A DNA stretch of 61,874 nt, the filler included, from Theionarchaea archaeon (lineage in GTDB: Archaea > Methanobacteriota_B > Thermococci > Methanofastidiosales > SZ-28-30): assembly GCA_018992565.1 (NCBI GenBank). It is 3 parts of 3 records of this genome, joined end to end, with 100 filler letters (N's around TTAATTAATTAA, not from the genome) between each part and the next. Parts side by side here need not be neighbours in the genome. Positions count along the whole stretch, not along the records: positions 1 to 23,295 come from JACVGW010000041.1; 2 more parts are not named here. One strand, written 5' to 3'. Below the pieces are notes generated by a model that saw only the letters and a program-made list of their open reading frames with translations, was not told the origin of the DNA and did no database searches. This document shows, one piece after another, positions 5,162 through 25,949 of the stretch (positions are counted from its first letter, which is position 1; each line of letters begins with the position of its first letter). The position numbers and the translations under genes were made by a program.

Positions 5162-5803
5162 ATGGAAGAAAAAATGCCTTTGATTGGGGATACATTCCCT
5201 CAGGTAGAAGTGGCGACGACGCACGGTAAAATGGTCTTACCTGATGCATATTCAGGTAAGTGGATGGTCTTCTTCAGCCATCCTGCTGATTTCACACCGG
5301 TATGCACTACTGAATTCGTGGCATTTCAGAAGAGAGTTGACCAGTTCAAGAGCTTGAATTGTGAACTCATTGGACTGAGTGTAGATCAGGTTTTTTCTCA
5401 CATCAAATGGATCGAATGGATCAAAGCAGCTTTAGATGTTGAAATACAGTTTCCGATTATTGCAGATACAGGAAAGGTTTCTAACATGCTGGGGTTAATA
5501 CATCCTGGAAAAGGAACAAACACTGTACGGGCTGTGTTCATTGTGGATCCCAAGGGGATCATTCGAGCAATTCTGTACTACCCTCAGGAACTGGGAAGAA
5601 ATATGGATGAAATCCTGCGGATGATAAAGGGGTTCCAGGTCAATGAGAAACATAACGTGGCTCTCCCTGCCAACTGGCCAGAAAACGAGCTGATAAAAGA
5701 TGAAGTAATTATACCACCTCCCTCAGATGAGAAGACTGCCCGGGAGAGAATGAAAGAGCACCAGTGTTTTGACTGGTGGTTCTGCCACAAGAAACTGAAA
5801 TGA
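5162..5803 (+). CDS. Peroxiredoxin (archaeal Prx6 type)
   Basis: [13 protein letters not shown] and C-terminal CFDWWFC. Confidence 0.95.
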
Positions 5804-5825
5804 AAAGGTAACAAGGAGGTATACT

Positions 5826-6203
5826 ATGACAAAAAAGCTACAGGTGTATAAGTGCACTGTATGTGGGAATATTGTCGAAGTGCTGCATGAAGGTGTGGGG
5901 CAGCTGGTGTGCTGCGGACAACCTATGGAGTTGATGGTGCCAAAAACAGCAGATGTGGGAAAGGAAAAACATGTCCCCGTTGTGGAGAAAAAGGACAATA
6001 CTGTAACAGTGAAAGTGGGCTCTATCCCCCACCCCATGGAGGCAACCCATTACATTGAGTGGGTTGAAGTTATTGCGGATGGTCGGGCATACCGCAAGTT
6101 CTTGAATCCAGGGGACAGCCCAGAAGCGAAATTCGAAATCGCCTTCAAAACCCTTGAAGTGAGAGAGTACTGCAATGTCCATGGACTATGGATGGCCACA
6201 TGA
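5826..6203 (+). CDS. dfx: Desulfoferrodoxin / superoxide reductase
   Basis: CxxCGN..CCG desulforedoxin domain, EKHVP, HPM, HYIEW, CNVHG. Confidence 0.95.
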
Positions 6204-6212
6204 GGTGTTGTC

Positions 6213-6740
6213 ATGATTAAGAAGGCAGTAGAGAAAGCCTTGAACAACCAGTTGAATGCTGAGCTGTATTCTTCGTATCTCTATCTCTCTATGTCGTCCT
6301 GGTTCAGTTCTCAGAACCTAAATGGATTTGCCAACTGGATGCGGGTACAGGCTCAAGAAGAACTCATGCATGCCATAAAATTCTATGACTATCTCATTCA
6401 GAGAGATGGACGGGTACTCCTCGTTGCTGTAGATGCGCCGCCCACCGGGTGGGATTCCCCTGAAGCGGTCTTTGAACATACATACCAGCATGAGCAGAAG
6501 GTCACTGAGTTGATTAATGACCTGGTTGATCTGTCTATTTCAGAAAAGGATCACGCCACCCATATGGTTCTCCAGTGGTTTGTGGATGAACAGGTAGAAG
6601 AAGAATCATCAGCCAGCGACATTCTTGGGAAGGTCAAGATGCTGAAAGAGAGCAAGAGCGGCATATATATGCTGGACAGGGAACTCAGCCAGAGGGTGTT
6701 CACTCCCCCCGCAGCCCAGGAACCTGCAACAGCACCGTGA
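6213..6740 (+). CDS. ftn: Ferritin
   Basis: [29 protein letters not shown]. Confidence 0.95.
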
Positions 6741-6752
6741 AGAGGGGTATCA

Positions 6753-7244
6753 ATGAACCTGAGTGAATACAGCTTGAAGGAATTGTTGCTTACTGCATTA
6801 GAAAGTGAAATTGAAAGTAGAAGTGTGTATGAAACACTTTCTAACAGGGTGAAAAACGCCTTTCTTAGAGACCGCCTTGCTTTCCTGGCAAATGAGGAAA
6901 AAAAGCACGGCATCTTTATTGAAGGTGTGTACAAGAAGACATTTCCCCAGGATATAATTATCTTGCCTGATGAGACCCCTGTTCCTCTACCTCTGGTGAA
7001 GATTCCCACAGAAGATGTCCCTCTGAGCTTCGTCTTTGAACAGGCCATGGAAGCAGAAAAAGCCTCCAGTGAGTTCTACCAGGGGCTGGTACATCAATTC
7101 CAGGATGTCAAAATACAGAAGACGCTAGCTGCTTTTGCAGCTATGGAAATGGATCACTACAGAATTCTTGAAGCTGAACACAAGACCATGAAGCGATTTG
7201 AAACCTTTGACACAGAATGGCCCATGATGAATGTGGGACCTTAA
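6753..7244 (+). CDS. Ferritin-like/rubrerythrin-family diiron protein
   Basis: E..S...Y, EExxH and EMDH diiron ligand patterns; no rubredoxin domain. Confidence 0.85.
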   Translation: MNLSEYSLKELLLTALESEIESRSVYETLSNRVKNAFLRDRLAFLANEEKKHGIFIEGVYKKTFPQDIIILPDETPVPLPLVKIPTEDVPLSFVFEQAMEAEKASSEFYQGLVHQFQDVKIQKTLAAFAAMEMDHYRILEAEHKTMKRFETFDTEWPMMNVGP

Positions 7245-7301
7245 TGCAGGAGCACGAAATTGCAGGTTGTATACCTGACGAATCTATAGAGATGTGATGT
7301 T

Positions 7302-7874
7302 ATGAACTTAAAAGGGACTCAAACAGAAGAGAATGTGCTAATCGCCTTCGCTGGCGAATCTCAGGCACGTAATCGCTACACCTTCTTTGCCTCTCAGGCC
7401 AAAAAGGAAGGATATGAACAGATCAAAGACATTTTTCTGGAAACAGCGGACAATGAGAAAGAACATGCAAAAAGACTATTCAAGTTCCTGGAAGGTGGGG
7501 AAGTGGAAATTACTGCTTCATATCCTGCTGGGACTATTGGCAGCACAAAGGAGAACTTGAAAGCGGCAGCAGAGGGAGAGAATTACGAGTATAGCACTAT
7601 GTACCCTCAATTTGCAGATGTTGCTGAGAAAGAAGGATTTCCAGAAATTGCTAGTGCTATGAGATCTATAGCGGTGGCAGAAAAACAGCACGAAAAGCGA
7701 TATCTTGCTTTGCGTGAGAATCTAGAAAAAAATCGGATATTCAAAAGAGAAAAACCCGTGAAATGGAGATGTGAAAATTGTGGATACATCCACGAAGGAA
7801 CAGAACCTCCTGAACAATGTCCCGCCTGTGCACATAGCAAAGCATATTTTGAACTGCTTGCGGAAAACTGGTGA
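7302..7874 (+). CDS. rbr: Rubrerythrin
   Basis: [23 protein letters not shown]-terminal CxNCG..CPAC. Confidence 0.97.
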
Positions 7875-8019: not shown

Positions 8020-8883
8020 ATGCACCTTCGAGATTGGTACGACCTGACCAGGCTGGATCATGGAATTCTGTGGGGTGCTGCTGTTGTAGTGGGAGAAATC
8101 CTGGCATACCGAGGAATCCCACCTCTGCAGTACATCATTTTGGGGTTTGCCGCTCCTCTTCTTGTTGAAATTGGCGTATTTTCTTTGAATGACTATATGG
8201 ATAGGGAGAGTGATATTCTCAACAACCGGATCGACAGGCCTCTCGTCCGAGGAGCATTCCCCAGACAGTACCCCCTCTATATTGCGCTGGTGATGCTGCC
8301 AGGAGCAGTAGTGGTGGGATTCATTTCCAGTCTCATGGTCCCTCTTATTCTCGTGATTCTGTTCTCTGCGCTGGGCGTTCTGTACAATGTCAAATTGAAA
8401 GGAGTACCCTGTGTCAAGAACTGCATCATGGGGGTGTGCATTGCGGCCCCCTTGCTGGGAGGAAACCTGATTGTAGAGGATGAGATCCTCCCTGTGGTTG
8501 CCCTTTTTGCCACCGCGGCTTTTTTGCTGGGAACAGGAAGAGAAATACTCAAGGACATGATGGACACTGCAGGAGACAAGGCAACTGGATGCAGGACACT
8601 TCCCCTGTTGATAGGCTCCAAGAACTCTGCCAGGATTGTCTTTTCTCTCTTTCTGGTATCATGCGTTGTGATCCTGTTTCCCTGTGGTTACCCCTGTGAC
8701 AGTTTCTATTTCCACGACATCTTGTACTTGATCTCAGCCTGCATAACATGTGGGCTCACAGTCTACTGTGCATGTTCTCTCCTGAAGGACTGGTCCAGAA
8801 CCCGTGTGGTTCTCCTGAGAAAAAGGACATTCAACATCCTTGAGCTGGGAGTCTTCACCTTCCTGTTAGGAGTGCTCTTCTGA
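8020..8883 (+). CDS. UbiA-family prenyltransferase, likely digeranylgeranylglyceryl phosphate synthase
   Basis: NDYMDRESD..N..DRPL..G and REILKDMMDxxGD aspartate-rich motifs; multi-TM. Confidence 0.85.
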   Translation: MHLRDWYDLTRLDHGILWGAAVVVGEILAYRGIPPLQYIILGFAAPLLVEIGVFSLNDYMDRESDILNNRIDRPLVRGAFPRQYPLYIALVMLPGAVVVGFISSLMVPLILVILFSALGVLYNVKLKGVPCVKNCIMGVCIAAPLLGGNLIVEDEILPVVALFATAAFLLGTGREILKDMMDTAGDKATGCRTLPLLIGSKNSARIVFSLFLVSCVVILFPCGYPCDSFYFHDILYLISACITCGLTVYCACSLLKDWSRTRVVLLRKRTFNILELGVFTFLLGVLF

Positions 8884-10055: not shown

Positions 10056-10184
10056 TTATTCTCTCTTAGTTTTCCTCTTCAGCCGGATTCTCTTCTTCAC
10101 TCGAACCCACTTCTTCTTGGGTCTGACCTTTATGTTGGGTGATTTCCTTAAAGGTCTGCGTTTTCTGTCTTTTCGTGATCCCAT
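10056..10184 (-). CDS. Very basic 42-aa protein, eS32/eL41-like ribosomal protein candidate
   Basis: MGSRKDRKRRPLRKSPNIKVRPKKKWVRVKKRIRLKRKTKRE; about half K/R; TATA-like AACCTTTATAT just upstream. Confidence 0.55.
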   Translation of the reverse strand: MGSRKDRKRRPLRKSPNIKVRPKKKWVRVKKRIRLKRKTKRE

Positions 10185-10356
10185 AATCCCACATTTTTTA
10201 GAACCATATAAAGGTTATGCAAGTCTTTTTCAATGAATCGAATCAGATTCACCTGATTGCACCCTGATAATAGAGGAGGGTAAAAGCAATTAGAGAAAAT
10301 CTCAAAGAAAGTAAAAAAAATAGTTATAGAAAGCTGCACTATCCGATTCAGCCACC

Positions 10357-10434
10357 CTACGCGTAGATTTCCATCTTTCCACCAGTGGAAGCAACGCAGG
10401 TAGCGTCCAGGTAGTCTTCAACTCGGGGTTCCAT
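10357..10434 (-). CDS. Putative RiPP precursor peptide A1, 25 aa
   Basis: MEPRVEDYLDATCVASTGGKMEIYA; AGGAGGTGA RBS, own BRE/TATA, downstream T-tract; co-oriented with rSAM/PqqD operon. Confidence 0.85.
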   Translation of the reverse strand: MEPRVEDYLDATCVASTGGKMEIYA

Positions 10435-10477
10435 CGTTCTCACCTCCTGTACAGTGATTATACAACATATTTCTTTG

Positions 10478-10497
10478 AGTTATTAAGCTTTTTGGTG
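10478..10497 (-). promoter_or_regulatory. BRE/TATA promoter of precursor A1
   Basis: Minus strand CACCAAAAAGCTTAATAACT about 45-60 nt upstream of ATG; conserved in both copies while the intervening spacer diverges. Confidence 0.75.
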
Positions 10498-10648
10498 CGT
10501 TCGGAGTATGATGCACCACGTGGGAGGTATTAACCCGAACTCTGTTACGGATAAGGGATAAGCAGAGAGATACGTCAAGGAACGCTCTTTCAAAAAAGAA
10601 ATAAAAGAAAAATATGGTATGTCAGGTCTTGTTCTTTCTACTCCCGGC

Positions 10649-10723
10649 TTAGAGGTACTCCATCTTTCCACCAGTGGAAGCAACGCAGGTAGCGTCCAGG
10701 TAGTCTTCAACTCGGGGTTCCAT
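10649..10723 (-). CDS. Putative RiPP precursor peptide A2, 24 aa
   Basis: MEPRVEDYLDATCVASTGGKMEYL; same RBS and promoter as A1. Confidence 0.85.
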   Translation of the reverse strand: MEPRVEDYLDATCVASTGGKMEYL

Positions 10724-10766
10724 CGTTCTCACCTCCTGTACAGTGATTGTTGAGTATATTCTTCTA

Positions 10767-10786
10767 AGTTATTAAGCTTTTTGGTG
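10767..10786 (-). promoter_or_regulatory. BRE/TATA promoter of precursor A2
   Basis: Identical CACCAAAAAGCTTAATAACT element at same spacing. Confidence 0.75.
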
Positions 10787-11014
10787 GTAATACATGTACA
10801 CATTTAAATAAGAAAAATTTCATTTCTACTCTATAAAATAGAGCAATATTATATTTATCTACACTTCAGAGTCACAGAAGAAAGAACATCATCAATGAAA
10901 TCTCTCTCAGCATAGGTTGATCTCTAGGGGACCACGAATATCTGTGAAGAACCGGTGTATGTTTTTTGGCTCAGGAAAAGCGGTAGTAGGCCCCATCCAC
11001 CCGACATGTGCCTG

Positions 11015-12022
11015 CTAAAGAGTGTCTGGATGATACAGACAATAGGGATCAGGTTCTTCAAAAGCTCCTCTCACCATATGTGCCGCAGCAATACATCCTC
11101 CACCGCACTCTGTTACATATGTGCACGTCGCACACTTTCCTCCTGTGATCACTGCGTCCCGTGCTCTCTGCAGCAGTGAGGATGTCTCCCACATGCACTT
11201 GAACCCCTCTTTCGCCACAGACTCATCCTGTATCGTGATGTAGGGGCAGGGAGTGATATTCCCTTCTGCAGTTATGGAACAGACCTGGACTCCCGCGGGG
11301 CATCTACGCCCTGCTTGTTCAGAAAAATCAAAAGCTTCTTCAATCTCGTAGTGAAGTCCCTTTTTATCGTATTGACTGCGGTTCCGTGCGTACCCTATGA
11401 TAATGGGGTTCAGTATGGTAGGATCTGGCAAGTGCTCATCGTTCTCCTTCCTGGGTATATATCTGCGAATATGGGCCAGGACTAGTCCCTGCTCATGCGC
11501 CCACTCTGGAAAAGAGGGGGCCTGGTGTATGTTATGGCTCATGGGCATGAATGACACAAAAGCTCGTATCTCAAGGTCTCTCAGCATGGCAAGAGTGTCA
11601 AGCAGTGTATCAAATGATCCAGGGATCCCTGTAATTGCATCATGGGTGTCTGAAGTGATGCCAAACAGAGGAAGGTCAAGTGCACCTAGGTGCGCCTCTC
11701 TGAGGGCTTTTGCCCGGGACTCAGTGAGCAGCAGCCCGTTAGTCTGCACGAGACTCCAGACGGGGCGACCCCTAAGGTGGATTAGAAGCTCCTCCAGCCC
11801 TGAGTAGAGTAGTGGCTCGCCTCCTGTAAAATATATCTTAAATACTCTCTCTTCCACCAATTCATCAAGAATTCTCTTGGCAACCTCTACATCCAGAGAT
11901 ACATTCTCATTCCTTACGAGGCAGTGTGCGCAGTGAAGGTTGCACTTCCGGGTTACCTCCAGGTAGACTGTCAGGGGTGCTCTCATTCTTTTCCCGGAGT
12001 TCTCTCTTCTGAGCGGAGTCAT
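11015..12022 (-). CDS. Radical SAM/SPASM protein (#4 of cluster)
   Basis: CNLHCAHC, TGGEP, SPASM CPAG..C..GNITPC..CxxCxxxxxCGGGC..DPYC; ATGA overlap with upstream gene. Confidence 0.92.
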   Translation of the reverse strand: MTPLRRENSGKRMRAPLTVYLEVTRKCNLHCAHCLVRNENVSLDVEVAKRILDELVEERVFKIYFTGGEPLLYSGLEELLIHLRGRPVWSLVQTNGLLLTESRAKALREAHLGALDLPLFGITSDTHDAITGIPGSFDTLLDTLAMLRDLEIRAFVSFMPMSHNIHQAPSFPEWAHEQGLVLAHIRRYIPRKENDEHLPDPTILNPIIIGYARNRSQYDKKGLHYEIEEAFDFSEQAGRRCPAGVQVCSITAEGNITPCPYITIQDESVAKEGFKCMWETSSLLQRARDAVITGGKCATCTYVTECGGGCIAAAHMVRGAFEEPDPYCLYHPDTL

Positions 12023-13032
12023 GGGTCTCCCTCTACAAAACACTGATAGTCTGAAGCGTACAAATCATGAGTTTTCGCGTACACAGCAGCTCTGCATCCT
12101 CCTCCACATTGATGAAGATGTGTGCAGGAGCTACACTTTCCGTGAATCTTGTCCAGGGCTCTGAATCGGGCCATCACAGGAGAATGTGCCCAGATTTTCC
12201 TGAAATCCTGGTCCAGCACGCTGCCGCAGTAAAATGCAGGATCATCAAACATAGGGCAAGGCACCACCTGGCCGTTGGCTTTTATTCCTGCCAGAGTGCG
12301 TCCCGCCTGACATCCCACCCATTGATGGGGGTTCTCTTTTCCATGGAGAAGGAATCCAAACGCTTCATCTGCCACAGCATGAATGGTCCCCTTGTATCCA
12401 TAGATCTCTTCCAATACCCAGCGATATTCTGTAGGCGTCAGGTCCATTGAACTCATTTCTGCTGCCCTTCCGGTATAGATCAACCGGTAGAACCTGATAG
12501 TGAAGGCACCCAATTTCTCGGCAAGCTGAACCAGTTCTGTAATTTCAGAGAAGTTCTTTCGATAGACTACGGTGGTAACCCCAAAAGGTATTCCTGCCTC
12601 TTTCAGAATGCCTGTGGCCTCAAGGACTCTCTGGAAAGCTCCCTGCCTCTTTCTAAGATAGTCATGGGCTTCTTCCAGTCCGTCAAGACTGAGCTGGACC
12701 ATGGACACTCCCGAGGACTTCAAAGCTGAGGCTTCTTCCCCATAGATGAGCATCCCATTGGTGGCCAGTTCCACTGGAACCCATTGAGCAGCATACTGGA
12801 TGAGATCGAAGATGTCTTTTCGTAGAAGAGGTTCTCCTCCTGAAAAGGACAGCCTGAATACCTTTGCTCTGACCACCTGATCAATGATGGTCATGGCTTC
12901 GCGAGTGGTAAGTTCGTGGACGCTGGCAGGCGTGGCCTCTACATAGCAGTGCCTGCAGTTCAAGTTGCACCTGTTGGTGACGTCCCAGATAATGCTATTG
13001 GGAGCTGATAAGTGTGTCCTATTCATTTTCAT
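12019..13032 (-). CDS. Radical SAM/SPASM protein (#3 of cluster)
   Basis: CNLNCRHC, SGGEP, CQAG..GQVVPC..CSSC..CGGGCRA; start at MKMNRT (13032 or 13026). Confidence 0.93.
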   Translation of the reverse strand: MKMNRTHLSAPNSIIWDVTNRCNLNCRHCYVEATPASVHELTTREAMTIIDQVVRAKVFRLSFSGGEPLLRKDIFDLIQYAAQWVPVELATNGMLIYGEEASALKSSGVSMVQLSLDGLEEAHDYLRKRQGAFQRVLEATGILKEAGIPFGVTTVVYRKNFSEITELVQLAEKLGAFTIRFYRLIYTGRAAEMSSMDLTPTEYRWVLEEIYGYKGTIHAVADEAFGFLLHGKENPHQWVGCQAGRTLAGIKANGQVVPCPMFDDPAFYCGSVLDQDFRKIWAHSPVMARFRALDKIHGKCSSCTHLHQCGGGCRAAVYAKTHDLYASDYQCFVEGDP

Positions 13033-14014
13033 TCCTCCAGCAGTAGGGATCCTTCCTGGTAGCATCCTGGTATCGTGCATATGCAGCTGCAGGGCATCCT
13101 CCCTTGCAGAAATCAGCAATTTCGCACGTACATACTCTTTTCATCTCTCTAAAATGCTCAGCAGATTCAGAATGCCAGATTTCATCAAATTCATCAGATA
13201 AAAGGTCCCCCATGAGAAATTCGTCATGTGCCAGAAAAATACAGGGATACACCTTCCCAGAGGAATCAACCCCACACTCAGTGCGCCCCGCAGGACACCC
13301 GTACCATGAGAGATTGTATTCCTCAATTCTCCTTCCCAGAAAGCTCATGCATTCATCAGGTACTATGTCAAGAACATTCTCATGCAGCCTTCTCTGTTCC
13401 AGCAGAACCTCAATGAGCGACTTGGTCTGAGCAGGTGTGAGAGCTTCACTTTCAAGAGCATCACCTCTCCCCATGAGGATGAGGCGGCTGGCTCTGAACT
13501 GAGTGACTCCCCACTCAACCGCTTTTTCCAGTAGAAGGGGAATTTCAGAGAGGTTTTGCTGCGAAACCAGAGTATTTACAGAAACAGGTACTCCATTTTC
13601 CACCAGGTAGCTAATCCCTTCTACAGACTTAGCAAAACAGCCCTTCATCTGCCTCTGATAGTCATGGTTTTCTTCCAATCCGTCAATGCTAATCTGGACC
13701 GAATCACAGCCAGTTTCCTTAATCCTCTGGGCAACTCGTTCTGTAATCAGCGTACCGTTGGATATCAACTGGACATACTTCTTTTCTTGTTTGAACATGG
13801 GGATAATATTCCAGATTTCTGGTTCCATGAGAGGTTCTCCTCCACTGAGAGTTGCAAGAAAGATGCCAGAATGAGCGAGCTTGTCAGCTATGGTCAAGAG
13901 CTCTCTGGGTGGAAGGCTCCTGCCTGATCCTGATGAGTTGTAGCAATGTCTGCATGACAGGTTACACCGGGTAGTTATGTCCCAGATGACTCGAAGTGGA
14001 GCACGCAAGGTCAC
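13019..14014 (-). CDS. Radical SAM/SPASM protein (#2 of cluster)
   Basis: CNLSCRHC, SGGEP, CPAGRTEC..GKVYPC..CTC..CKGGCPA..DPYC. Confidence 0.93.
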   Translation of the reverse strand: MTLRAPLRVIWDITTRCNLSCRHCYNSSGSGRSLPPRELLTIADKLAHSGIFLATLSGGEPLMEPEIWNIIPMFKQEKKYVQLISNGTLITERVAQRIKETGCDSVQISIDGLEENHDYQRQMKGCFAKSVEGISYLVENGVPVSVNTLVSQQNLSEIPLLLEKAVEWGVTQFRASRLILMGRGDALESEALTPAQTKSLIEVLLEQRRLHENVLDIVPDECMSFLGRRIEEYNLSWYGCPAGRTECGVDSSGKVYPCIFLAHDEFLMGDLLSDEFDEIWHSESAEHFREMKRVCTCEIADFCKGGCPAAAYARYQDATRKDPYCWRNENE

Positions 14015-14060
14015 ATGATCATCTCACTGTGGATTTCTATACTCTCTGGTGGCTGTAAAC

Positions 14061-15032
14061 TCACTTCTTGCTCAGTGGACACCCCGGATCGAGGTCCAGA
14101 GATTGGGTGATGCGGTATGCGGCTGCCCGACATCCTCCACACAGACTGCAGTATGAGCAACTCTGACATCCCTCCAGTCCCTTACGGAAGGCGTTGAGAA
14201 AGTCCCACTCTTTCCATATGGTCTTCAAATCTGAATCCCAGATTACAGGGGCATCAATTGACTCAGCCAGGGGCTTTGAGGCAAAATGGGGGCAGGGTAC
14301 TACATATCCATCGCAGGTAATCATTGCAGATGTTTTTCCTCCCACGCATCCCTGGAATGCATTCTTGTTGATCCTTTCTTTGTATGGGGTCAGGTGGAGG
14401 AACGTATAGCAGTTGTTGGGAATGATATTTCTTCCTTTCTTCTTGAGGTCATACACCCTGCTCAGGAGGTCCATGCATTGATCTGGACCGAGGTAGTCAG
14501 TGGGATGGATGTATCGAAGGATGCGATGGGCATTCACAGAAAACTGAGACACAATATCTGAGGTGGCCTCCAGGTATGAGAGGTTTTGCGGCGTCACCAC
14601 AGTTCCTACATGTGTGTCAATGTCCAGATCGCAAAAGGTCTTCATAGCCTCAAGCGTTCTCTGGAAACTCCCTTCCCCTCTGATAGAATCGTGATATTCT
14701 TCCGGCCCTTCTATGGGGAACTGGATCATATTCAGGTTAGCATTCCGAAGAGCTTCAGCTTGTGATATGTCTTCAGCCCCGGACACGAGGCCCACCACCA
14801 TAGGTTTCCTCCGCATGTACTCGACCAACTCTGCAATCCCCTCCCACAGCAAGGGCTCACCACCATCTATAAGTACGGTGAATACCTTGGCTTCCCATAA
14901 GAGGTCTACCAGGGAGAAGGCCTCTTTCTGGGATAGAGAAGCACCATCGGGGGGAGCATAGCACTCTAAAGCACAGGCTGCACATTTTCTGGAAACCTGA
15001 AGGTAAACATAGGTGGGGCTGGAGAACATCAT
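14061..15032 (-). CDS. Radical SAM/SPASM-like protein with atypical CX2CX3C motif (#1 of cluster)
   Basis: CAACALEC in place of CX3CX2C, DGGEP, SPASM CVGG..GYVVPC..CQSC..CGGCRA..GC; starts 1 nt after PqqD stop. Confidence 0.88.
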   Translation of the reverse strand: MMFSSPTYVYLQVSRKCAACALECYAPPDGASLSQKEAFSLVDLLWEAKVFTVLIDGGEPLLWEGIAELVEYMRRKPMVVGLVSGAEDISQAEALRNANLNMIQFPIEGPEEYHDSIRGEGSFQRTLEAMKTFCDLDIDTHVGTVVTPQNLSYLEATSDIVSQFSVNAHRILRYIHPTDYLGPDQCMDLLSRVYDLKKKGRNIIPNNCYTFLHLTPYKERINKNAFQGCVGGKTSAMITCDGYVVPCPHFASKPLAESIDAPVIWDSDLKTIWKEWDFLNAFRKGLEGCQSCSYCSLCGGCRAAAYRITQSLDLDPGCPLSKK

Positions 15033-15033
15033 A

Positions 15034-15294
15034 TTACAGCCACCCGATGAGCTTCCGCTCATCCATATCCTTCAAGAAAGCATCCACCTGTTCTCTGACA
15101 TCTTCAAGTTCCTCTCCTTCTTTTTGTGAGAGTGTCTCTGCAATAGTGCTAACATCCATGGTTCCGTCACACATACTCCAGATGAGAAATCCATCTTTGT
15201 TCAGTTTGTGCATCCGTCCTGCCCCGGGATCAAAGATGATAGCTCCAAAATCCTCCTCTCTACAGATCACATCTTCTCGCTGTTTTGGGATCAT
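15034..15294 (-). CDS. Stand-alone PqqD-family RiPP recognition element (RRE)
   Basis: 86 aa; LN..G..IW..CDG...V..I...L......E.V...V..FL..M....LI pattern. Confidence 0.92.
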   Translation of the reverse strand: MIPKQREDVICREEDFGAIIFDPGAGRMHKLNKDGFLIWSMCDGTMDVSTIAETLSQKEGEELEDVREQVDAFLKDMDERKLIGWL

Positions 15295-16508
15295 TCACTC
15301 ACCTTTGGGGGATTTGCAGGTAGAACAAAGTGTAGCATGATGATGGTAGCGACGACCATGGCAGCGCACAGGAAGAAGGGTACGCGCAGGCTGGTGAGTC
15401 CTCCTACGGCAGAGCCCAGTATAGGGCCAACCATAGATCCAATGCTGCAAACGCAGATGACTGCTCCGCTGGCAGTTCCCCTCTGTGATGAGACTGTCAC
15501 ATCACCAATAAGACTGTAAGCAACAGTAGCATATGGGGCAGCTCCTATGCCCACCAGCATGTAGCTGATAAAGAACATGAGGGGATTGACAGACAGGCCC
15601 GCCAAAGACACACCCACTACATAGATGAACAGGGGGTATATCAAGAGGCGCTTTCTCCCTAGCCGGTCTGACATGGTACCTGCCACAAATTGGGAAACAG
15701 CATACAGAATACCCAGTGAGGTGCCCAGGATTCCCAGCATTGTGTACGTCATGCCCAGCTCTTCTACAGCAAATATGCTCATGATGGGAGTGAGAATCCC
15801 ACTGGCGAAGTAAAGCATACCAAACATCAACAGGACTGTAAGGAAGACCAGGTTGCCCACGAGTTCTCTTGTGGGAAGCCTCATTTTCTGAACAGTAAAT
15901 CCTGTCCCCAGTTCTCTGAATTGAACGAGGAAGAAGACTGCCGCTATCATGGGAAAAATTGTACCCACATAGAATAACGGGTTAAAGCTCCCAGTAGAGT
16001 CTCTTATTACACCTCCCACCGTAGGTGCAGCCATGCTGGCCAGCGTCGTGAGCAACGCAAACGTGCCCAGTGCTTGTCCTCTATTCTCCTCTGTGGTCTT
16101 GTCCATTACATATGCGCGCGCAATAGGAAAGATGAATCCTATGATTCCTCCATGTGCTGCCCTCAAGAGCAAGAGCTGTGTTGTGGTGTGGGCCAGGGTA
16201 TACGAGAATACTATCCCTCCCAATAAGAACAAGCTCAGCGTAATGAGGTTTCTGCCAATCCTGTCTGAAATGTATCCTGCAGGCAGGGAAATCAGCGCAT
16301 TAAACAGAGAGTAGACAAGTGCAAAAGCACCCAGTTGCACCACAGGGACACCAAAGTCCTTGAGGAAAAGGTACAGGAATGCGCCGTAGATCTGTTCCCC
16401 AAAGAGCACCAGTGACATGACAATGCTGAACAGCAGAATCAGAGCTTCTACTCGAATCAGATCAGAAAATCTCTTCTTGAGTCTACTTATTCCTTCATCT
16501 ATTATCAT
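15291..16508 (-). CDS. MFS transporter
   Basis: About 12 TM; G..SDRIGR and G..SDRLGRK motifs; stop overlaps PqqD start. Confidence 0.92.
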   Translation of the reverse strand: MIIDEGISRLKKRFSDLIRVEALILLFSIVMSLVLFGEQIYGAFLYLFLKDFGVPVVQLGAFALVYSLFNALISLPAGYISDRIGRNLITLSLFLLGGIVFSYTLAHTTTQLLLLRAAHGGIIGFIFPIARAYVMDKTTEENRGQALGTFALLTTLASMAAPTVGGVIRDSTGSFNPLFYVGTIFPMIAAVFFLVQFRELGTGFTVQKMRLPTRELVGNLVFLTVLLMFGMLYFASGILTPIMSIFAVEELGMTYTMLGILGTSLGILYAVSQFVAGTMSDRLGRKRLLIYPLFIYVVGVSLAGLSVNPLMFFISYMLVGIGAAPYATVAYSLIGDVTVSSQRGTASGAVICVCSIGSMVGPILGSAVGGLTSLRVPFFLCAAMVVATIIMLHFVLPANPPKVSE

Positions 16509-16735
16509 AGGTTAACCCTCCGTGTTGTTCAGAAAAAGGAGGAGCAGAACATGGAAGAAATGCGTGCCATAGAGCATCATGACAACGAGGTTGGCATATC
16601 TGCGGAAGAACACGCGTGCGTGAAAGGGGTTGAGATCCATGATATTCCACGTTTCCACCTCCAGTATGTAGTGCTCCTTCACTTCTTCTGCTTTCTTTAT
16701 AAATATTTCGAGCTGCTGAATGTGTGCAGCACAAA

Positions 16736-17686
16736 CTAGATAACCTTCTGTATCTTAACATGTTTTTGAGCAGGCACAAACCCCAGTTCCTTGAGAAGGG
16801 TTCGCTCAGGGAGATTATCTTCCATTACCATGTAGTCCAGAATGTATTCTGCATTCCACTTTCTCATCTCTTGCAGCATTTCAACATACAGAGCAGACCC
16901 AATCCCCATACCTCTGAATTCCTTGAGAACACCGTTGTTCAGGACCCTGCCCACAACCCTGTTCTTATTAAACACCTTCTGAAATGATATAAGAGCTCCA
17001 ATGAAGCCTGCTGGCACCTCCTTCACTTCTGCAAATATCCACACCCCAATCATGTGTCTCTGGCCCTGGTACATGACAGAATCCAGATGTTCCTCATGGA
17101 TTTGAGACATGTTGGGGATTTCAGCGCTGATCTCATTGACCAGAGCAGTATATGTCTTGATATCTTCTCTCAGGTTTTTTGATATACGTAAGTCTACCTT
17201 CTCTTTTGTTTTTTTGTAATAACCAAGCATGAGTTCAGTGATGGGGAGAGATCCTTCTCTGATGAATGTGTCTTCCTTATACAGTTCCTGGTATCCTTTT
17301 TCTTTGAACAGAACGACAAACCGCGAATTGAAATCAGCTATCCGCGTGGTGATCCTGGTAACCCCTTTCTGAGCCAGTACAGTCTCGCATTCCTGCAGCA
17401 GTTCGTCCTCAATTTTCCCACGATATGGTGTGGCAATCCACAAATCCAGCCAGTACGTATCTCCAAGAAAGCAGCTTCTCTTGCCAGGCGCTATTCGAGT
17501 GGTGAATCCTGCCTGGACATTGTCATTCTCTTCCACAACCCAGTAGGTTCTTTCTGTTCCATCGGGTACTGGTTTGTTCATATCGATTTCACTGACAGGT
17601 GCACAGACATCTCCGTGCTCCCACTCTTTCTGGCAGTATTCTGCCCACTGGGGCTGTTCCTGCACACGAAGTCCTCTTACCTCCAC
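16736..17686 (-). CDS. Tandem-domain GNAT family N-acetyltransferase
   Basis: Two acetyl-CoA-binding motif A-like segments (IATPYRGK; GVLKEFRGMGIG), N..ERTLLKELGF. Confidence 0.8.
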   Translation of the reverse strand: MEVRGLRVQEQPQWAEYCQKEWEHGDVCAPVSEIDMNKPVPDGTERTYWVVEENDNVQAGFTTRIAPGKRSCFLGDTYWLDLWIATPYRGKIEDELLQECETVLAQKGVTRITTRIADFNSRFVVLFKEKGYQELYKEDTFIREGSLPITELMLGYYKKTKEKVDLRISKNLREDIKTYTALVNEISAEIPNMSQIHEEHLDSVMYQGQRHMIGVWIFAEVKEVPAGFIGALISFQKVFNKNRVVGRVLNNGVLKEFRGMGIGSALYVEMLQEMRKWNAEYILDYMVMEDNLPERTLLKELGFVPAQKHVKIQKVI

Positions 17687-18213
17687 TATTTCACCACCTC
17701 CTCCATGTACTCAGTTTCGGGAATTTCAAGTTCCACATGAGCGGAATTCTCTGGAATGTCATATTCATCCAGGAAGAAGGCAAACAGAAGGATATCCTTG
17801 CCATCAACAGTATGTTTTCTCAGACAGCCCTCATACGTATAACCAAGGAAATTCAAAAGAGATACCATCATGGGGTTCCTACCAATAACAGAATCAGTGA
17901 CTTTATTCCTACCTTCTGCCTTAAACACCTTTAGAGCTGCAATATACAAATTGGTACCTATTTCATGCCCTCTACATTCTCTATCAACCACAATGACCCC
18001 ATTTTTGCCAATTGTTTTTGAAGGTCTGTGCAGAACATGAGCGCCAACTACTGTGCTCTCCATGCATGCACTGAGAATGGAAATCTTTCCTCTCTTATTG
18101 GCATTTACTGCATTTCGTATCTCTTTCTCTCTTTTGTCATAACTAGATTGAGAAAAAATTCGTACTATATCCACTAAATCATCCGGAATGCTCGGTCTGA
18201 TGACTATTTTCAT
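17686..18213 (-). CDS. GNAT family N-acetyltransferase
   Basis: VVDRECRGHEIG, N......LGYTYEGCLRKH (RimJ/RimL-like tail). Confidence 0.82.
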   Translation of the reverse strand: MKIVIRPSIPDDLVDIVRIFSQSSYDKREKEIRNAVNANKRGKISILSACMESTVVGAHVLHRPSKTIGKNGVIVVDRECRGHEIGTNLYIAALKVFKAEGRNKVTDSVIGRNPMMVSLLNFLGYTYEGCLRKHTVDGKDILLFAFFLDEYDIPENSAHVELEIPETEYMEEVVK

Positions 18214-18364
18214 TCTTCCACCTCCAGCTAGTCTGGTGAAGACAGTATAAAAATCTTATGGTATCTGTATTTGTATCTGTTCGAATGATGATATTGCCCG
18301 TATGTCAGAAGGAGAGGTCTTTAATGTTCGAATGATGACTACATAAATCGTTTGCGTCCATCAG

Positions 18365-21340: not shown

Positions 21341-21493
21341 ATGTGGATTGCAGTTAGGGTAGGCGAGGATACCATTTTATTCAATAGTGACAGTGAGGAA
21401 ACTCTGAACTGGCTCAAAGAGATTCATGGAGTGGGCCAGACACGAGAAGAAGCAATCTTTGATTTGGAAAGGAGGTTGTCTCATGAAAAGTAA
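21341..21493 (+). CDS. Small HicB-like protein
   Basis: GGTGA RBS; GVGQTREEAIFDL resembles HicB G.T.EEA motif; overlaps pstS start. Confidence 0.45.
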   Translation: MWIAVRVGEDTILFNSDSEETLNWLKEIHGVGQTREEAIFDLERRLSHEK

Positions 21494-22427
21494 AGTTCTA
21501 AGAATCTTCTGTTCAGTAGTCGTTATGGCTGCTCTGGTTTCATCATGCTGTATTACGCAGAAAAGTGAGACTATAAATGTCTCTGGTGCGTGGGCCCTGT
21601 ATCCCCTGATGGTCAAGTGGGCAGAGGAATATACCAATCTACACCCTGAGATCAGGATAGATGTCTCTGCAGGGGGAGCGGGGAAAGGAATGGCAGATGT
21701 TTTGGGAGGCCTCGTTGACATTGGAATGGTATCAAGAGAAATATATCCTGAGGAAATCGAGAAAGGGGCTTTCTGGGTTGCTGTGGCAAAAGATGCCGTG
21801 GTTCCCATTTTCAACAAGGAGAATCCCTATGCAGAGGACATACTTAATCACGGAGTCAGCCGTCAGGTATTCACAGACATTTTCATTACAGGGAAGGTGA
21901 CAACATGGGGAGACATTCTTGGAAAGCCAGAAATCACAGAAAAAGTCCATGTATATACCCGAAGTGATGCGTGTGGTGCCGCCCAGACCTGGGCCCAGTA
22001 TCTTGGGTTTGCTCAGGAGGACCTCATTGGAGTCGGTGTATATGGCGACCCCGGGATTGTGGAGGCTGTAGGGAGCGATGAATACGGTATTGGTTATGGC
22101 AACCTGAATTTCGCGTATGACGCAAGTACAGGTGCACCGTCACCAGGAGTGATTGCACTGCCCCTGGACCTCGATGGGAACGGTACAATTGAATTCCGCG
22201 AAAATGTATATGCTACGAAATCTGATGTCATTGCAGCCATCGACCAGGGAATCTACCCTTCACCTCCGGCACGAGCACTGCATCTTGTGACCAAAGGGGC
22301 TCCTGAAGGGTTAGTGAAAGAGTTCTTGATCTGGATTCTTACCGAAGGACAACAGTATGTTTCTGAAACTGGATACATTGGATTGGGAGAAAGAATCCAG
22401 GAAGAACTCGAAAAACTGGAGGGGTAA
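21483..22427 (+). CDS. pstS: Phosphate ABC transporter substrate-binding protein
   Basis: Signal peptide with Cys, SGAWALYPL, GGAGKG, DIGMVSR. Confidence 0.9.
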   Translation: MKSKVLRIFCSVVVMAALVSSCCITQKSETINVSGAWALYPLMVKWAEEYTNLHPEIRIDVSAGGAGKGMADVLGGLVDIGMVSREIYPEEIEKGAFWVAVAKDAVVPIFNKENPYAEDILNHGVSRQVFTDIFITGKVTTWGDILGKPEITEKVHVYTRSDACGAAQTWAQYLGFAQEDLIGVGVYGDPGIVEAVGSDEYGIGYGNLNFAYDASTGAPSPGVIALPLDLDGNGTIEFRENVYATKSDVIAAIDQGIYPSPPARALHLVTKGAPEGLVKEFLIWILTEGQQYVSETGYIGLGERIQEELEKLEG

Positions 22428-22428
22428 C

Positions 22429-23295
22429 ATGAGCATGAGGAAGGTCATTGATTGGGTTTCTCAGAGAGTGATGTACGCTGTCACTGCTGCAGTCTCATTC
22501 CTTGTAGTGCTTATTGCAGCCGGATTATATCTCAAAGCACGTCCCATCCTGGAGATTAACCCAATAGATGAATTGCTGACCTCCTCATCATGGCACCCCC
22601 TCAAGGGTGAGTTTGGATTCTACCCCTTCTTAATGGGTACGTTCTGGGTAACCTTTCTGGCAATGGTATTTGCCATTCCCATCTGTCTATTATCCTCAAT
22701 TTATGTATCAGAATATGCCCCCAGAAGGATGAGGGATGTAATAAAGCCACTAGTTGACCTTTTGGCAGGAATCCCTTCAGTAGTGTACGGAGTGTTTGGC
22801 ATTCTCGCTGTGGTGCCATTCATACGGGATGTAGCCCACAGGATCAACATTTCCACCACAGGATATTCAGTTCTGGCAGGGGGAATTGTACTCGCTATCA
22901 TGGTTTTTCCCATTATTATTTCTGTATCTGTAGAAGTGATCCAGAGTGTGCCATATGAGGCACGAGAATCGTCTCTCTCGCTGGGAGCTACTCAATGGCA
23001 GACTGTAAAGAAGGTGGTGCTCAAGAAAGCTTTCCCAGGAATTGTAGCAGCCATCATATTGGGATTTTCTCGGGCCTTCGGGGAGACTATGGCAGTTTTG
23101 ATGGTGGTGGGGAACATTCCTCAAGTTCCCCACTCCATTTTTGACGAAGCATATCCACTGACTGCATTGATCGCCAACAACTACGGCGAAATGCTGTCTA
23201 TTCCCCTGTACGATTCAGCCCTTCTCCTTGGCGCTCTCATTTTGCTGCTAATAGTCCTGCTGTTTAGTATGGCAGCCAGGCTTATACTCATGAGG
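22429..23295 (+). CDS. pstC: Phosphate ABC transporter permease (3' end at gap)
   Basis: LLAGIPSVVYG, LGATQWQT, SRAFGETMAV. Confidence 0.93.
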
Positions 23296-23395
23296 NNNNN
23301 NNNNNNNNNNNNNNNNNNNNNNNNNNNNNNNNNNNNNNNTTAATTAATTAANNNNNNNNNNNNNNNNNNNNNNNNNNNNNNNNNNNNNNNNNNNN
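23296..23395. other. Assembly gap with TTAATTAATTAA linker
   Basis: N-run flanking a stop-codon linker. Confidence 0.95.
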
Positions 23396-23397
23396 TT

Positions 23398-24510
23398 GTG
23401 GAGTATATGATGGGGGAGCATGTGCTGGAGTGGAGTCAGGTACCAGACCCTGTACAGCCGCTGCACAAAAGGAATAGCCCCTTCAGTATGTCTTTTGACA
23501 TAACGTATGCATGCAATCTTTCGTGTCCTTTCTGTTCAGTTGATGCAGGAGAACCCAGGCCTGATGAATTGACCGTGGAGGATATTGCACCATTTCTGGA
23601 ATGGATAAAAACTGTGAAGCCGTCTCCTGTAATGATCAATGGAGGAGAACCGCTCATGAGAAAGGACTTCCTTCTGCATATTCTCCAGGAATTGTCTCAG
23701 GTGAAAGACATCATTACCCCCGTCCTGACCAATGGCACGTTGATAACCCAGGAATATGCAAGAGATTTAGTCGAGGCAGGTCTCACCATAGGGAGGGTGG
23801 GGATAGATGGACACACAGCAGCTTTACACAATGCCATGAGAGGTGAGGGAACGTTCAAGAAGGCAATAGCTGGTATTGAAAATCTCAAAGAATGTGGTAT
23901 TCATGTTAATGTCATTGCTGTCATCACACAGCTGAATTATCCACACCTGCAGGACATTGTAGCATTTCTGGAGACAATAGCTGACAGTTATAATATTGCA
24001 CCAGTGTATCCCTTTGGGAGAGCAACGTCAGACATGATGCTAACCCAGGAACAAGTCTTCAGGGTAAAAACTGCCCATCTGAAGGGGGGAAAAATTGAAA
24101 CACTCATTGCTCCGAGGACGCAGTGCGATGCAGGAGATGTCATACATATTGCAGGAAACGGGGATATTTTTCCCTGTTTTTATATGCAGTTCCCTGAATA
24201 CCGTCTAGGGAATATCAAAGAAGACTTTTCCTCAATCTACGACGCACATGTCATGCGCACCGTCCTGGAATTAGATGTTGACAAGATTGAAGAATGTAGA
24301 ACATGTGAGATCCGGTATTTCTGTGGGGGCGGGTGCAGAGGATTTGCACGTCATATGTGCGGATCAGTGCTCAGTCCTGATCCACTCGATTGTGAATCCA
24401 ATAAGATACTGGTGGACCAGATTCAAAAAACCGGAGAAGATGTGACCAAAAAAGTACTTGAAGAATTGCTTGACAGGACCCGGCATCTCAAGACAGGGGC
24501 GTGGAGATGA
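23398..24510 (+). CDS. Radical SAM/SPASM protein (5' truncated by gap)
   Basis: CNLSCPFC, NGGEP, CDAG..GDIFPC..CRTC..CGGGCR..DC. Confidence 0.92.
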   Translation: MEYMMGEHVLEWSQVPDPVQPLHKRNSPFSMSFDITYACNLSCPFCSVDAGEPRPDELTVEDIAPFLEWIKTVKPSPVMINGGEPLMRKDFLLHILQELSQVKDIITPVLTNGTLITQEYARDLVEAGLTIGRVGIDGHTAALHNAMRGEGTFKKAIAGIENLKECGIHVNVIAVITQLNYPHLQDIVAFLETIADSYNIAPVYPFGRATSDMMLTQEQVFRVKTAHLKGGKIETLIAPRTQCDAGDVIHIAGNGDIFPCFYMQFPEYRLGNIKEDFSSIYDAHVMRTVLELDVDKIEECRTCEIRYFCGGGCRGFARHMCGSVLSPDPLDCESNKILVDQIQKTGEDVTKKVLEELLDRTRHLKTGAWR

Positions 24511-24584
24511 GGACGGGGGCTTCTTCAAATCGAAAGCTTTAAGAAAGATTATTGTGTTAACCAACAGACTGGAGGAGAAATCAC

Positions 24585-25826: not shown

Positions 25827-25949
25827 CAGGACTCGTGGCGGTATCACCTGTTATACCATCTTGAGGTGGCCACAGCATAGTAGTCAATCTGGAGTAAGGA
25901 TTATATGAGTGATTTTCTGATACTGGGCAAGAGAACTCGGAGCTGAATC

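Follow-up and report, generated by a model that had tools for sequence, protein, structure and literature searches.

A candidate RRE-dependent peptide maturation system with four radical SAM enzymes in Theionarchaea-type archaea

We describe a gene cluster from an uncultured sediment Theionarchaea archaeon that probably encodes an undescribed, lineage-restricted system for RRE-dependent peptide maturation by multiple radical SAM (rSAM) enzymes and for export of the product (probability about 0.72, judged by sequence comparison). The cluster lies in a stretch of 61,874 nt (the window), along which all positions are counted. Its substrates would be 23–29-aa peptides encoded by mini-genes that adjoin the cluster and that, in one genome at least, are also scattered elsewhere. 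A stand-alone PqqD-family protein would bind the peptide at its conserved N-terminal block, P-x-V-E-D-Y-x-D-x-T-C-V-A-S-S/T, and hand it to four non-redundant radical SAM/SPASM enzymes. These would carry out four conserved steps, so that their targets would have to be invariant residues. The product would be exported by the MFS transporter, while two GNAT acyltransferases may constitute an optional tailoring or self-protection module. To our knowledge, few archaeal RiPPs (modified ribosomal peptides) have been characterised. With four distinct radical SAM/SPASM enzymes and a defined, tiny substrate, each chemistry could be read by mass spectrometry after co-expression.

Organisation of the cluster

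Eight genes share one orientation on the minus strand, in the order GNAT1, GNAT2, MFS, PqqD, rSAM1, rSAM2, rSAM3 and rSAM4, and two mini-genes come next (Table 1). This array had been proposed in a sequence-only reading, and ORF reading and profile searches place every gene where it was expected. The overlapping or abutting start and stop codons described there can be read directly at the gene junctions. GNAT1 and GNAT2 overlap by 1 nt, the MFS/PqqD and rSAM3/rSAM4 pairs each overlap by ATGA, the ATG of rSAM3 falls within the end of rSAM2, and the rSAM1 start favoured by homologues lies 2 nt past the PqqD stop. Sizeable gaps occur only between GNAT2 and MFS (227 nt) and between rSAM1 and rSAM2 (46 nt).

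Table 1 Features of the cluster, with positions along the window.
Feature	Position	Strand	Basis or remark
TATA-like box tttttatac	18245..18253	-	~31 nt 5' of GNAT1 start; putative promoter, function predicted from sequence
GGAGGTGG ribosome site of GNAT1	18214-18225		Read from sequence
GNAT1, 175 aa, acetyltransferase fold	17686..18213	-	Pfam Acetyltransf_1, alignment, tblastn
GNAT2, 316 aa, two GNAT domains	16736..17686	-	Pfam Acetyltransf_1 (two stretches), Acetyltransf_4
Archaeal promoter-like element CGAAA-nn-TTTATAAAG	16690..16715	-	5' of MFS; recurs in relatives
MFS transporter, 405 aa, drug/H+ antiporter-like	15291..16508	-	Pfam MFS_1
Stand-alone protein of the PqqD family (RiPP recognition element type), 86 aa	15034..15294	-	Pfam PqqD
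rSAM1, radical SAM/SPASM	14061..15032	-	Longest ORF to 15062; ATG ~15032 favoured by homologues
rSAM2, radical SAM/SPASM, canonical CxxxCxxC	13019..14014	-	NCBIfam, Pfam, alignment
rSAM3, radical SAM/SPASM, canonical motif	12019..13032	-	Longest ORF to 13119
rSAM4, radical SAM, canonical motif and SPASM-type cysteines	11015..12022	-	Other possible starts 12043, 11986
Promoter-like box AAAAGCTTAATAAC, peptide gene A	10768..10783	-	Putative; promoter role predicted
Peptide gene A, 24 aa, MEPRVEDYLDATCVASTGGKMEYL	10649..10723	-	Preceded by GGAGGTGA ribosome site
T-rich run 3' of peptide gene A, archaeal terminator-like	10592..10612	-	
Promoter-like box, peptide gene B	10479..10494	-	Inside 128-nt direct repeat
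Peptide gene B, 25 aa, ends ...KMEIYA	10357..10434	-	Preceded by GGAGGTGA; first 22 residues same as A
T8 and T-rich run 3' of peptide gene B	10304..10320	-	

Peptide mini-genes

The two tiny ORFs, reported in the earlier reading as missed by the ORF track, are present exactly as quoted, each behind GGAGGTGA. In the window each has its own promoter-like box, ribosome site and T-run, and both lie within the direct repeat, whose copies are 93% identical. They belong to a precursor family of 23–29 aa, a size that escapes gene callers, in which the N-terminal block is followed by a hypervariable, Met-containing tail. Each peptide has one Cys. After the Met, the tails of the cluster-linked peptides and of those in G001, the genome of one relative, contain no Lys, Arg or His. 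Y-x-D with variable x is invariant in 19/19 peptides; this motif invariance is partly built in, since the dispersed copies were located by a pattern that demands the motif and divergent copies would be missed.

In total 13 peptide genes are cluster-linked. The homologous clusters were examined for the small ORF, and all 7 of 7 lineages, the window included, carry 1–3 copies each. The location shifts between lineages: the genes lie 3' of rSAM4, 5' of GNAT1 or MFS, or in the rSAM1–rSAM2 gap. A GGAGGTG-type ribosome site and T-runs accompany every one, and most of the 13 have similar A/T boxes 45–60 nt upstream. Invariant residues are encoded with synonymous codon changes between genes. When 103 unrelated rSAM/SPASM loci (981,681 bases) were translated in six frames, the motif had no match. 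The peptide ORFs are far beyond chance ORFs, because each of the 6 other lineages has family members next to its homologous cluster, the codons vary synonymously and the unrelated loci contain none. The mini-peptides are almost certainly the substrates of the cluster enzymes, to judge from these sequence comparisons.

Seven motif matches were found in G001, six of them dispersed, while a reversed-pattern control gave 0. All seven are intact mini-genes with near-identical N-termini and fully diverged tails, and most adjoin no rSAM gene. Seven copies in one genome suggest that precursor inventories of archaeal MAGs are underestimated. In the class, 131 further genomes were searched with the pattern, and 0 contain the motif. 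The proposal of a single ~25-mer substrate needs extension: small peptides are confirmed, but they form a multi-copy family that is partly dispersed and hypervariable in its tail.

Conservation across lineages

The module was found in 6 further lineages, and the homologues are named Theionarchaea. The gene order of the eight is the same across lineages, at 48–83% identity. The full set occurs in L001, L052/L053, L055 and L056/L057; L058 holds the rSAM part of the cluster, and in L054 tblastn recovers the set without GNATs. The four rSAMs appear to be one-to-one orthologues across lineages, an assignment that rests on tblastn matches. Besides the peptide genes, only the eight cluster genes are shared between loci, and none of the genes flanking the relatives' clusters is conserved with the window flanks. 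The cluster is rare, as a search across the 132 species genomes of the class found it in just 1. The earlier statement that no peptidase lies inside the cluster is borne out: none is conserved in or beside it in the neighbourhoods of the loci compared.

A leader with a variable core accounts for the hypervariable tail and for the many, dispersed gene copies no less naturally than a conserved core does. The 17-residue block would then be the leader recognised by PqqD and the 4–12-aa tail the core, and the precursor library would yield a range of small modified peptides, either signals or antimicrobials, for export. Several cluster-linked copies per locus with differing tails are consistent with this, as are the seven G001 genes with near-identical N-termini and fully diverged tails. 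The tails, which always contain a Met and many hydrophobic and acidic residues, are also non-random in that Lys, Arg and His are missing after the Met, and in many peptides they directly follow G-G, G-S or G-A, which we take to resemble double-glycine leader cleavage sites. However, four one-to-one conserved enzymes need conserved targets, and Met is the only invariant residue of the tail. In addition, G-G is missing in L054, and no C39-type peptidase or ABC exporter was found in the cluster and its neighbourhood. We regard the variable core as a possible but less probable account.

Radical SAM enzymes

All four enzymes match PF04055 (Radical SAM). PF13186 (SPASM) is found in rSAM1–3, and TIGR04085 exceeds its cut-off in rSAM1. 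No Pfam SPASM match at E ≤ 0.01 was obtained for rSAM4, in which a SPASM-type pattern, CX2CX5CX3C...C, is kept in 7/7 lineages. CxxxCxxC is present in rSAM2, rSAM3 and rSAM4. Every aligned lineage keeps the cysteines of both the rSAM cluster and SPASM in rSAM1, rSAM2 and rSAM4; in rSAM3 they were counted in 5/7, the other two extracted sequences being probably truncated. With its Cys triad, SPASM cysteines, PqqD-like RRE and co-conserved precursor gene, the cluster has the predicted make-up of an RRE-dependent radical SAM/SPASM maturase.

rSAM1 carries a non-canonical CxxCxxxC (C27-x2-C30-x3-C34), with the GGE motif and the SPASM cysteines kept. All three Cys are found in 19 of 20 homologues, and the AlphaFold model puts the motif on the loop that follows strand 1. 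By fold, the enzyme is best matched by SuiB, PqqE, BlsE and SkfB. Translationally coupled to PqqD and bearing CxxCxxxC, rSAM1 may have a specialised or scaffolding role, and it may be catalytically inactive. How much displacement the radical SAM cluster motif tolerates is a question that this variant makes testable.

The rSAM1 family (21 homologue clusters at 64–99% identity, next at 26%) and the rSAM3 family (26 orthologue clusters at 64–100%, next ≤38%) are discrete. The nearest solved sequences to rSAM3 are PqqE (6c8v, E 1.6e-25) and SkfB (6efn). Among the solved relatives closest to the rSAMs are three peptide maturases (PqqE, SkfB, SuiB) together with BlsE and anSME.

A profile scan places the rSAMs outside the heme-biosynthesis Ahb/NirJ families and outside PqqE and MftC, as had been anticipated. 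The highest raw NCBIfam scores of rSAM2–4 come from NirJ/AhbD models. Among AhbC, AhbD, NirJ and NirJ1/2 (cut-offs 500–650 bits), rSAM3 scores best, with 217.6 for NirJ2 and 212.3 for AhbD against 500 for each. A protein annotated as "heme b synthase" has 35% identity to rSAM3, the level of hundreds of other rSAMs. A rival account, in which the rSAMs act on a protein, a lipid or, in the manner of Ahb/NirJ, a tetrapyrrole and the small ORFs encode unrelated small proteins or serve as regulatory elements, is very improbable. The raw score ranking and the position of most G001 peptide copies away from any rSAM speak for this rival. Against it, every Ahb/NirJ score is below half of its cut-off, G001 has no AhbD over the cut-off (best 174.6 vs 500), the gene translationally coupled to rSAM1 encodes a PqqD peptide chaperone, and the peptide gene accompanies the cluster in 7/7 lineages despite its shifting position.

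Relation to known systems

The cluster was suggested not to belong to a described class, and its gene combination is indeed absent from the literature and family libraries searched. It resembles the PQQ core in the short precursor (~23 aa in PQQ), in the stand-alone PqqD-family protein beside rSAM/SPASM without fused RRE, and in the invariant Tyr and acidic residues of the peptide, and among solved sequences PqqE comes closest to rSAM3. In contrast, PQQ uses one rSAM rather than four, and the cluster adds MFS and GNATs. The PqqA E-x-x-x-Y motif occurs in none of the 19 peptides, PqqB/C domains were not detected by Pfam among the cluster proteins, and PqqF is likewise missing. The best TIGR02109 (PqqE) score is 146.4 vs 381.35.

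Mycofactocin (MftA/MftB/MftC) likewise combines a PqqD-like RRE and a SPASM rSAM with a short peptide. MftC is the closest curated family for rSAM3 relative to cut-off (TIGR03962, best 190.3 vs 265 in the window; 190.3 in G001), but Pfam detects no MftD/E/F-type genes among the cluster proteins, and MftA ends in a GVY-type motif, which the cluster peptides do not. In the SynChlorMet (SCM) cassette one PqqD-like protein also serves more than one tandem rSAM/SPASM, and ScmD is the best NCBIfam match of the PqqD protein. Unlike SCM, the cluster has no ScmC-like gene and has four paralogues, one with CxxCxxxC; scores are 38.5 vs 100 for ScmD, 112.9 vs 400 for ScmE and 119.2 vs 400 for ScmF.

These likenesses raise the idea of a peptide-derived cofactor, in which block residues would be cross-linked and excised to yield one conserved small molecule for use by the cell, the tail and the rest being discarded. 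The matching architecture, the proximity of rSAM3 to MftC and the invariance of block residues across lineages and paralogues agree with it. We consider it unlikely, as the conserved core includes an efflux-type MFS, PqqB/C and MftE-type creatininase/MftD are missing from the cluster (Pfam), and the patchy occurrence among relatives (1/132 genomes) is unlike that of a core cofactor. A doubtful variant is that the D-Y-x-D-x-T-C-V-A-S block and the Met would give one conserved small molecule through four successive radical reactions, dispersed mini-genes raising precursor supply. If true, this would add to PQQ and mycofactocin a third class of peptide-derived cofactor or metallophore, the first archaeal one, and the CxxCxxxC of rSAM1 would be a new form of the site that holds the radical SAM cluster.

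For the favoured maturation and export system, cross-linking enzymes provide analogies. Triceptides, three-residue cyclophanes in which rSAM/SPASM enzymes (3-CyFEs) join an aromatic residue to a C-beta, are defined by an aromatic-X2-X3 motif (PMC11499958). The invariant Tyr-x-Asp fits this motif in form only. Unlike triceptides, the cluster peptides have a single such motif each, and the related cross-linking family WgkB scores 150 vs 650. No cluster enzyme matches any curated 3-CyFE model over its cut-off. Cys-to-Asp/Glu thioethers are formed in ranthipeptide (PapB) and QhpD systems. Here too, by analogy only, rSAM/SPASM enzymes accompany a single invariant Cys three residues past an invariant Asp. 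However, ranthipeptides known so far carry several Cys, and the PapB family scores 89 vs 340. Candidate steps, at roughly even odds, are a Cys13–Asp thioether, a three-residue cyclophane-type cross-link at Tyr8-x-Asp10 and a reaction at the invariant tail Met.

Accessory proteins

The PqqD protein matches Pfam PF05402 (E 4.8e-14) and stays under the equivalog cut-offs of PqqD proper (TIGR03859, 33.1 vs 46) as well as ScmD. The transporter matches MFS_1 with 179.7 bits; its top NCBIfam matches are multidrug/Tet efflux families, every one under cut-off. It is present in 6/6 lineages with enough upstream sequence. The regex used did not find the CGAAA-nn-TTTATAAAG element in the GNAT2–MFS spacer of L054; it is found in that spacer in 5 of 6 loci (window, L001, L053, L055 and L057).

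The GNATs, proposed as cluster members, are present in the window but accessory, as they are absent in L054. GNAT2 matches Acetyltransf_1 with 55.3 bits over two stretches and Acetyltransf_4 in its N-terminal half, and its identity between lineages is 48–55% (tblastn). GNAT1 matches Acetyltransf_1 just above the cut-off (21.8 vs 20.7 bits) and is the most conserved protein of the cluster, with 78–83% identity between lineages.

Gene array and operon layout

The cluster consists of eight co-oriented genes encoding two GNATs, an MFS transporter, a PqqD-family protein and four radical SAM (rSAM) enzymes, followed by two peptide mini-genes. The sequence-only reading had described a minus-strand array with mostly overlapping or abutting start and stop codons, and the junctions bear this out. 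ATGA overlaps are present between MFS and PqqD and between rSAM3 and rSAM4, the homologue-supported start of rSAM1 comes 2 nt after the PqqD stop, and rSAM3 starts inside the 3' end of rSAM2. The arrangement is consistent with a translationally coupled operon.

A TATA-like box precedes GNAT1 in the window. A CGAAA-nn-TTTATAAAG element ahead of MFS is better conserved, being present in five of the six loci examined (window, L001, L053, L055 and L057). In these five, the GNAT2-MFS spacer carries a GGAGGTG-like site ~40 nt downstream of the BRE/TATA-like element, with a ~150-nt leader between the site and MFS. Since no conserved small ORF was found in the spacer of the window or the loci compared, it may constitute a regulatory 5' leader.

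Features of the cluster, the rest of the window and one related locus
Feature	Sequence	Position	Strand	Description
Eight-gene array	window	18213 to 11015	minus	GNAT1 to rSAM4
GNAT1	window		minus	175 aa
GNAT2	window		minus	316 aa, two GNAT domains
MFS transporter	window		minus	405 aa
PqqD-family protein	window		minus	86 aa, stand-alone; Pfam E 4.8e-14
rSAM1-4	window		minus	330-366 aa; SPASM-type C-terminal cysteines in all
GNAT2-MFS spacer	window	16509-16735	minus	
Peptide gene A	window	10649-10723	minus	
Peptide gene B	window	10357-10434	minus	
Basic ORF	window	10056-10184	minus	42 aa, extremely basic, Lys/Arg-rich
Oxidative-stress run	window	5162-7874	plus	peroxiredoxin, desulfoferrodoxin, ferritin, two rubrerythrins
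UbiA prenyltransferase	window	8020-8883		
Transporter and rSAM region	window	21426-27305	plus	in order: ABC-transporter parts, rSAM/SPASM gene, 413-aa protein of no known family, second MFS
N run	window	23296-23395		
rSAM/SPASM gene	window	23398-24510	plus	27-29% identical to rSAM3
Second MFS	window	25950-27305	plus	
GNAT and rSAM pair	window	42245-43778	minus	
GNAT gene of the pair	window	43308-43778	minus	
Radical SAM gene of the pair	window	42245-43330	minus	361 aa
Fusion protein	window	50777-52348	plus	523 aa; PqqD + Radical_SAM + SPASM
MFS paralogue	L053	4506-5744	plus	~53-56% identical to cluster MFS

Conservation of the module

Homologues of rSAM1 form 21 close clusters at 64–99% identity, several of them named 'Theionarchaea archaeon' at NCBI, with nothing further above 26%. 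The orthologues of rSAM3 form 26 clusters at 64–100% identity, followed by matches at 38% or less. Many homologues of the two enzymes sit on contigs matching in size, consistent with linkage. The rSAM1 alignment, scanned against genome and metagenome collections, found nine related loci (L001, L051–L058) at 64–70% identity, with the remaining matches at or below 35%. L051 duplicates L001, L052 duplicates L053 and L056 duplicates L057; the loci therefore represent six lineages besides the window.

According to tblastn, gene order is the same in the related loci. All eight genes are present in L001, L052/53, L055 and L056/57, L054 contains MFS to rSAM4 and lacks the GNATs, and the short locus L058 covers the rSAM part only. 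In an all-against-all ORF comparison, the eight cluster genes were the only ones common to the window and other loci, and L054 is flanked by housekeeping genes such as RadA, RPA and PurA. At the level of gene content, the conserved core is thus MFS, PqqD and the four rSAMs, and the GNAT pair is optional. The pair, originally proposed as part of the system, is present in five of the six lineages with enough upstream sequence and missing from L054. No conserved peptidase or other accessory gene was found in the cluster flanks, in line with the earlier remark that the cluster contains no peptidase. In L053, a second MFS paralogue is located upstream of an extra peptide gene and GNAT1.

The only PDB sequence match of the GNATs is the N-alpha-acetyltransferase Naa30, at marginal significance (E 0.0016 for GNAT1, 0.0057 for GNAT2), which hints faintly at N-alpha-acetylation. 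The GNAT1 structure model has a pLDDT of 55. The GNATs may tailor or detoxify. L054, the sole lineage without them, also lacks a G-G-K stretch in its peptides (n=1).

A peptide family accompanies the cluster

The two tiny ORFs noted in the sequence-only reading, of 24 and 25 aa, are present downstream of rSAM4. In both, a GGAGGTGA ribosome site lies 5 nt ahead of the ATG, an A/T-rich box is located 45–60 nt upstream, and a T-run follows the stop codon. The two are part of a direct repeat (128 nt, 93% identity). The small ORF is carried by the homologous clusters as well: six-frame motif searches found 13 cluster-adjoining peptide genes over all seven lineages. Their location varies. Copies follow rSAM4 in the window (two), L001, L053 (two), L054, L057 and L058. 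In L053 and L057 a further copy precedes GNAT1, and in L055 the copy ahead of GNAT1 is encoded on the other strand. In L054, one additional copy separates rSAM1 from rSAM2 and another lies ahead of MFS. Peptide gene B is closely followed in the window by a short basic ORF, which has no match in any related locus compared.

All peptides share the motif P-x-(V/I)-(E/T)-D-Y-x-D-x-T-C-V-A-S-(S/T). The variable stretch that follows contains a Met in every peptide, in most cases four residues further along and often as part of G-(G/S/A)-K-M, and ends 1–8 mostly hydrophobic or acidic residues later. At invariant residues, synonymous codons differ between loci (TAC/TAT, GAC/GAT, ACC/ACG/ACT, TGC/TGT, GTT/GTC/GTA, TCC/TCA/TCG), a pattern that reads as a coding signature. 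A set of 103 unrelated rSAM/SPASM loci (981,681 bases) served as negative control and had no match to the motif in any frame.

A degenerate DNA pattern, applied to the 132 species genomes of the class of G001 (the genome containing L001), matched G001 alone, where it found seven copies; a reversed-pattern control gave 0 matches. One copy is at the cluster and six are on four other contigs, next to unrelated housekeeping genes. Each of the seven is an intact mini-gene, complete with ribosome site and T-run; the tails have diverged completely. The motif invariance of the dispersed copies is partly by construction, because the pattern demanded the motif and divergent copies escape it; the searches that found the cluster-linked copies used looser patterns. 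This seven-copy, tail-diverged family is a good fit to a conserved leader followed by a diversified short core, an arrangement that we consider possible and rather unlikely.

We favor a reading in which the conserved residues themselves are modified. The conserved module comprises a peptide chaperone, a transporter and four distinct SPASM rSAM enzymes, and members of one peptide family occur with it in every case. By analogy to PqqD-type recognition elements, PqqD would bind the conserved N-terminal block of the peptide, the rSAMs would modify it as SPASM peptide maturases do, and the MFS protein would export the product. Since each of the four rSAMs has one orthologue per lineage, four conserved steps would be expected, and therefore conserved target residues. 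Candidates are Tyr8, Asp7/Asp10, Thr12, Cys13 and the tail Met. PapB/QhpD-type chemistry yields a Cys-Asp thioether, and D-x-x-C could by analogy give such a product. Likewise by analogy, Y-x-D could carry a triceptide-like modification, as it resembles in form the aromatic-X2-X3 motif described in PMC11499958.

Identity of the four rSAM enzymes

None of the four rSAMs reaches the curated NCBIfam cut-off for NirJ2 (best rSAM3, 217.6 bits vs 500), AhbD (rSAM3, 212.3 vs 500), MftC (rSAM3, 190.3 vs 265), PqqE (rSAM3, 146.4 vs 381), ScmE (rSAM2, 113 vs 400) or ScmF (rSAM3, 119 vs 400). The HMM scan thus places them outside the heme-biosynthesis, PqqE and MftC families. In the list of rSAM3 homologues, a protein annotated as heme b synthase is 35% identical and stands in the company of hundreds of unrelated archaeal rSAMs. 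Among solved sequences, PqqE and SkfB are the closest. Mutual identity of rSAM1–4 is 24–37%, and in G001 the paralogues most similar to rSAM1 are the rSAM3 and rSAM4 enzymes of its own cluster, suggesting ancient tandem duplication.

G001 is unusually rich in rSAM/SPASM genes: rSAM1 has 28 matches there and the AhbD model 64 matched stretches, none of which passes the cut-off. Many lie in 420–500-aa open frames, and several form adjacent pairs (e.g. on C8, C45, C11 and C202). No AhbD or MftC above cut-off was found in this genome, despite dozens of rSAM/SPASM paralogues.

While rSAM2, rSAM3 and rSAM4 contain CxxxCxxC, rSAM1 contains C-x2-C-x3-C; its outer two Cys fall at the canonical positions in the alignment, and the middle one is off by one position. 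Of 20 homologues, 19 have all three, and rSAM1 retains the GGEPLL motif and SPASM cysteines. The AlphaFold model (pLDDT 70.7; barrel confident, SPASM part poor) places the Cys motif in the loop that follows strand 1, with SuiB, PqqE, BlsE and SkfB as best matches. In a profile search against 1.84 billion representatives, the rSAM1 family itself scored 634 bits and two distant cousins with unusual motifs 361 and 300 bits, followed by a continuum at or below 204. The rSAM1-like proteins P0024 (CxxCxxxC, GGN instead of GGE) and P0025 (CxxxCxxxC), from the representative search, are 42–47% identical. A search of 132 genomes from the phylum of G001 did not recover them, and no match in the rSAM3 homologue list could be assigned to their contigs. 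A near-identical member of this group is located on a 2.16-Mb contig.

Comparison with known systems

The cluster would work in the manner of the front ends of PQQ and mycofactocin biosynthesis and of multi-rSAM cassettes such as SynChlorMet, but falls outside these systems in every membership test run. It differs from them in having four paralogous SPASM enzymes for a ~25-aa peptide, a cluster motif that is shifted in one of the four, an MFS protein in the core, and precursors encoded by multi-copy, partly dispersed mini-genes. Literature searches found no published account of the cluster or peptide motif, and none of Theionarchaea biosynthetic gene clusters, which agrees with the initial impression of a class not yet described. 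In the available portions of two papers, CrpA/CrpC is a different archaeal system (PMC13692751), and Theionarchaea are mentioned in the context of methanogenesis remnants only (PMC9635834). The cluster is real, conserved and experimentally tractable.

Other genes in the window

The rest of the window is an ordinary archaeal chromosome of an anaerobe, with NMD3, an archaeal CCA-adding enzyme, LonB, desulfoferrodoxin and rubrerythrins. An oxidative-stress run is followed by a UbiA prenyltransferase; none of these genes is conserved beside the cluster in other lineages. Another rSAM/SPASM gene lies in a region interrupted by the N run. The fused protein has a sactisynthase-like architecture and may mark a second, separate peptide-maturation locus. 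The pairing of GNAT and rSAM recurs once more in the window, where a GNAT gene overlaps the start of a radical SAM gene.
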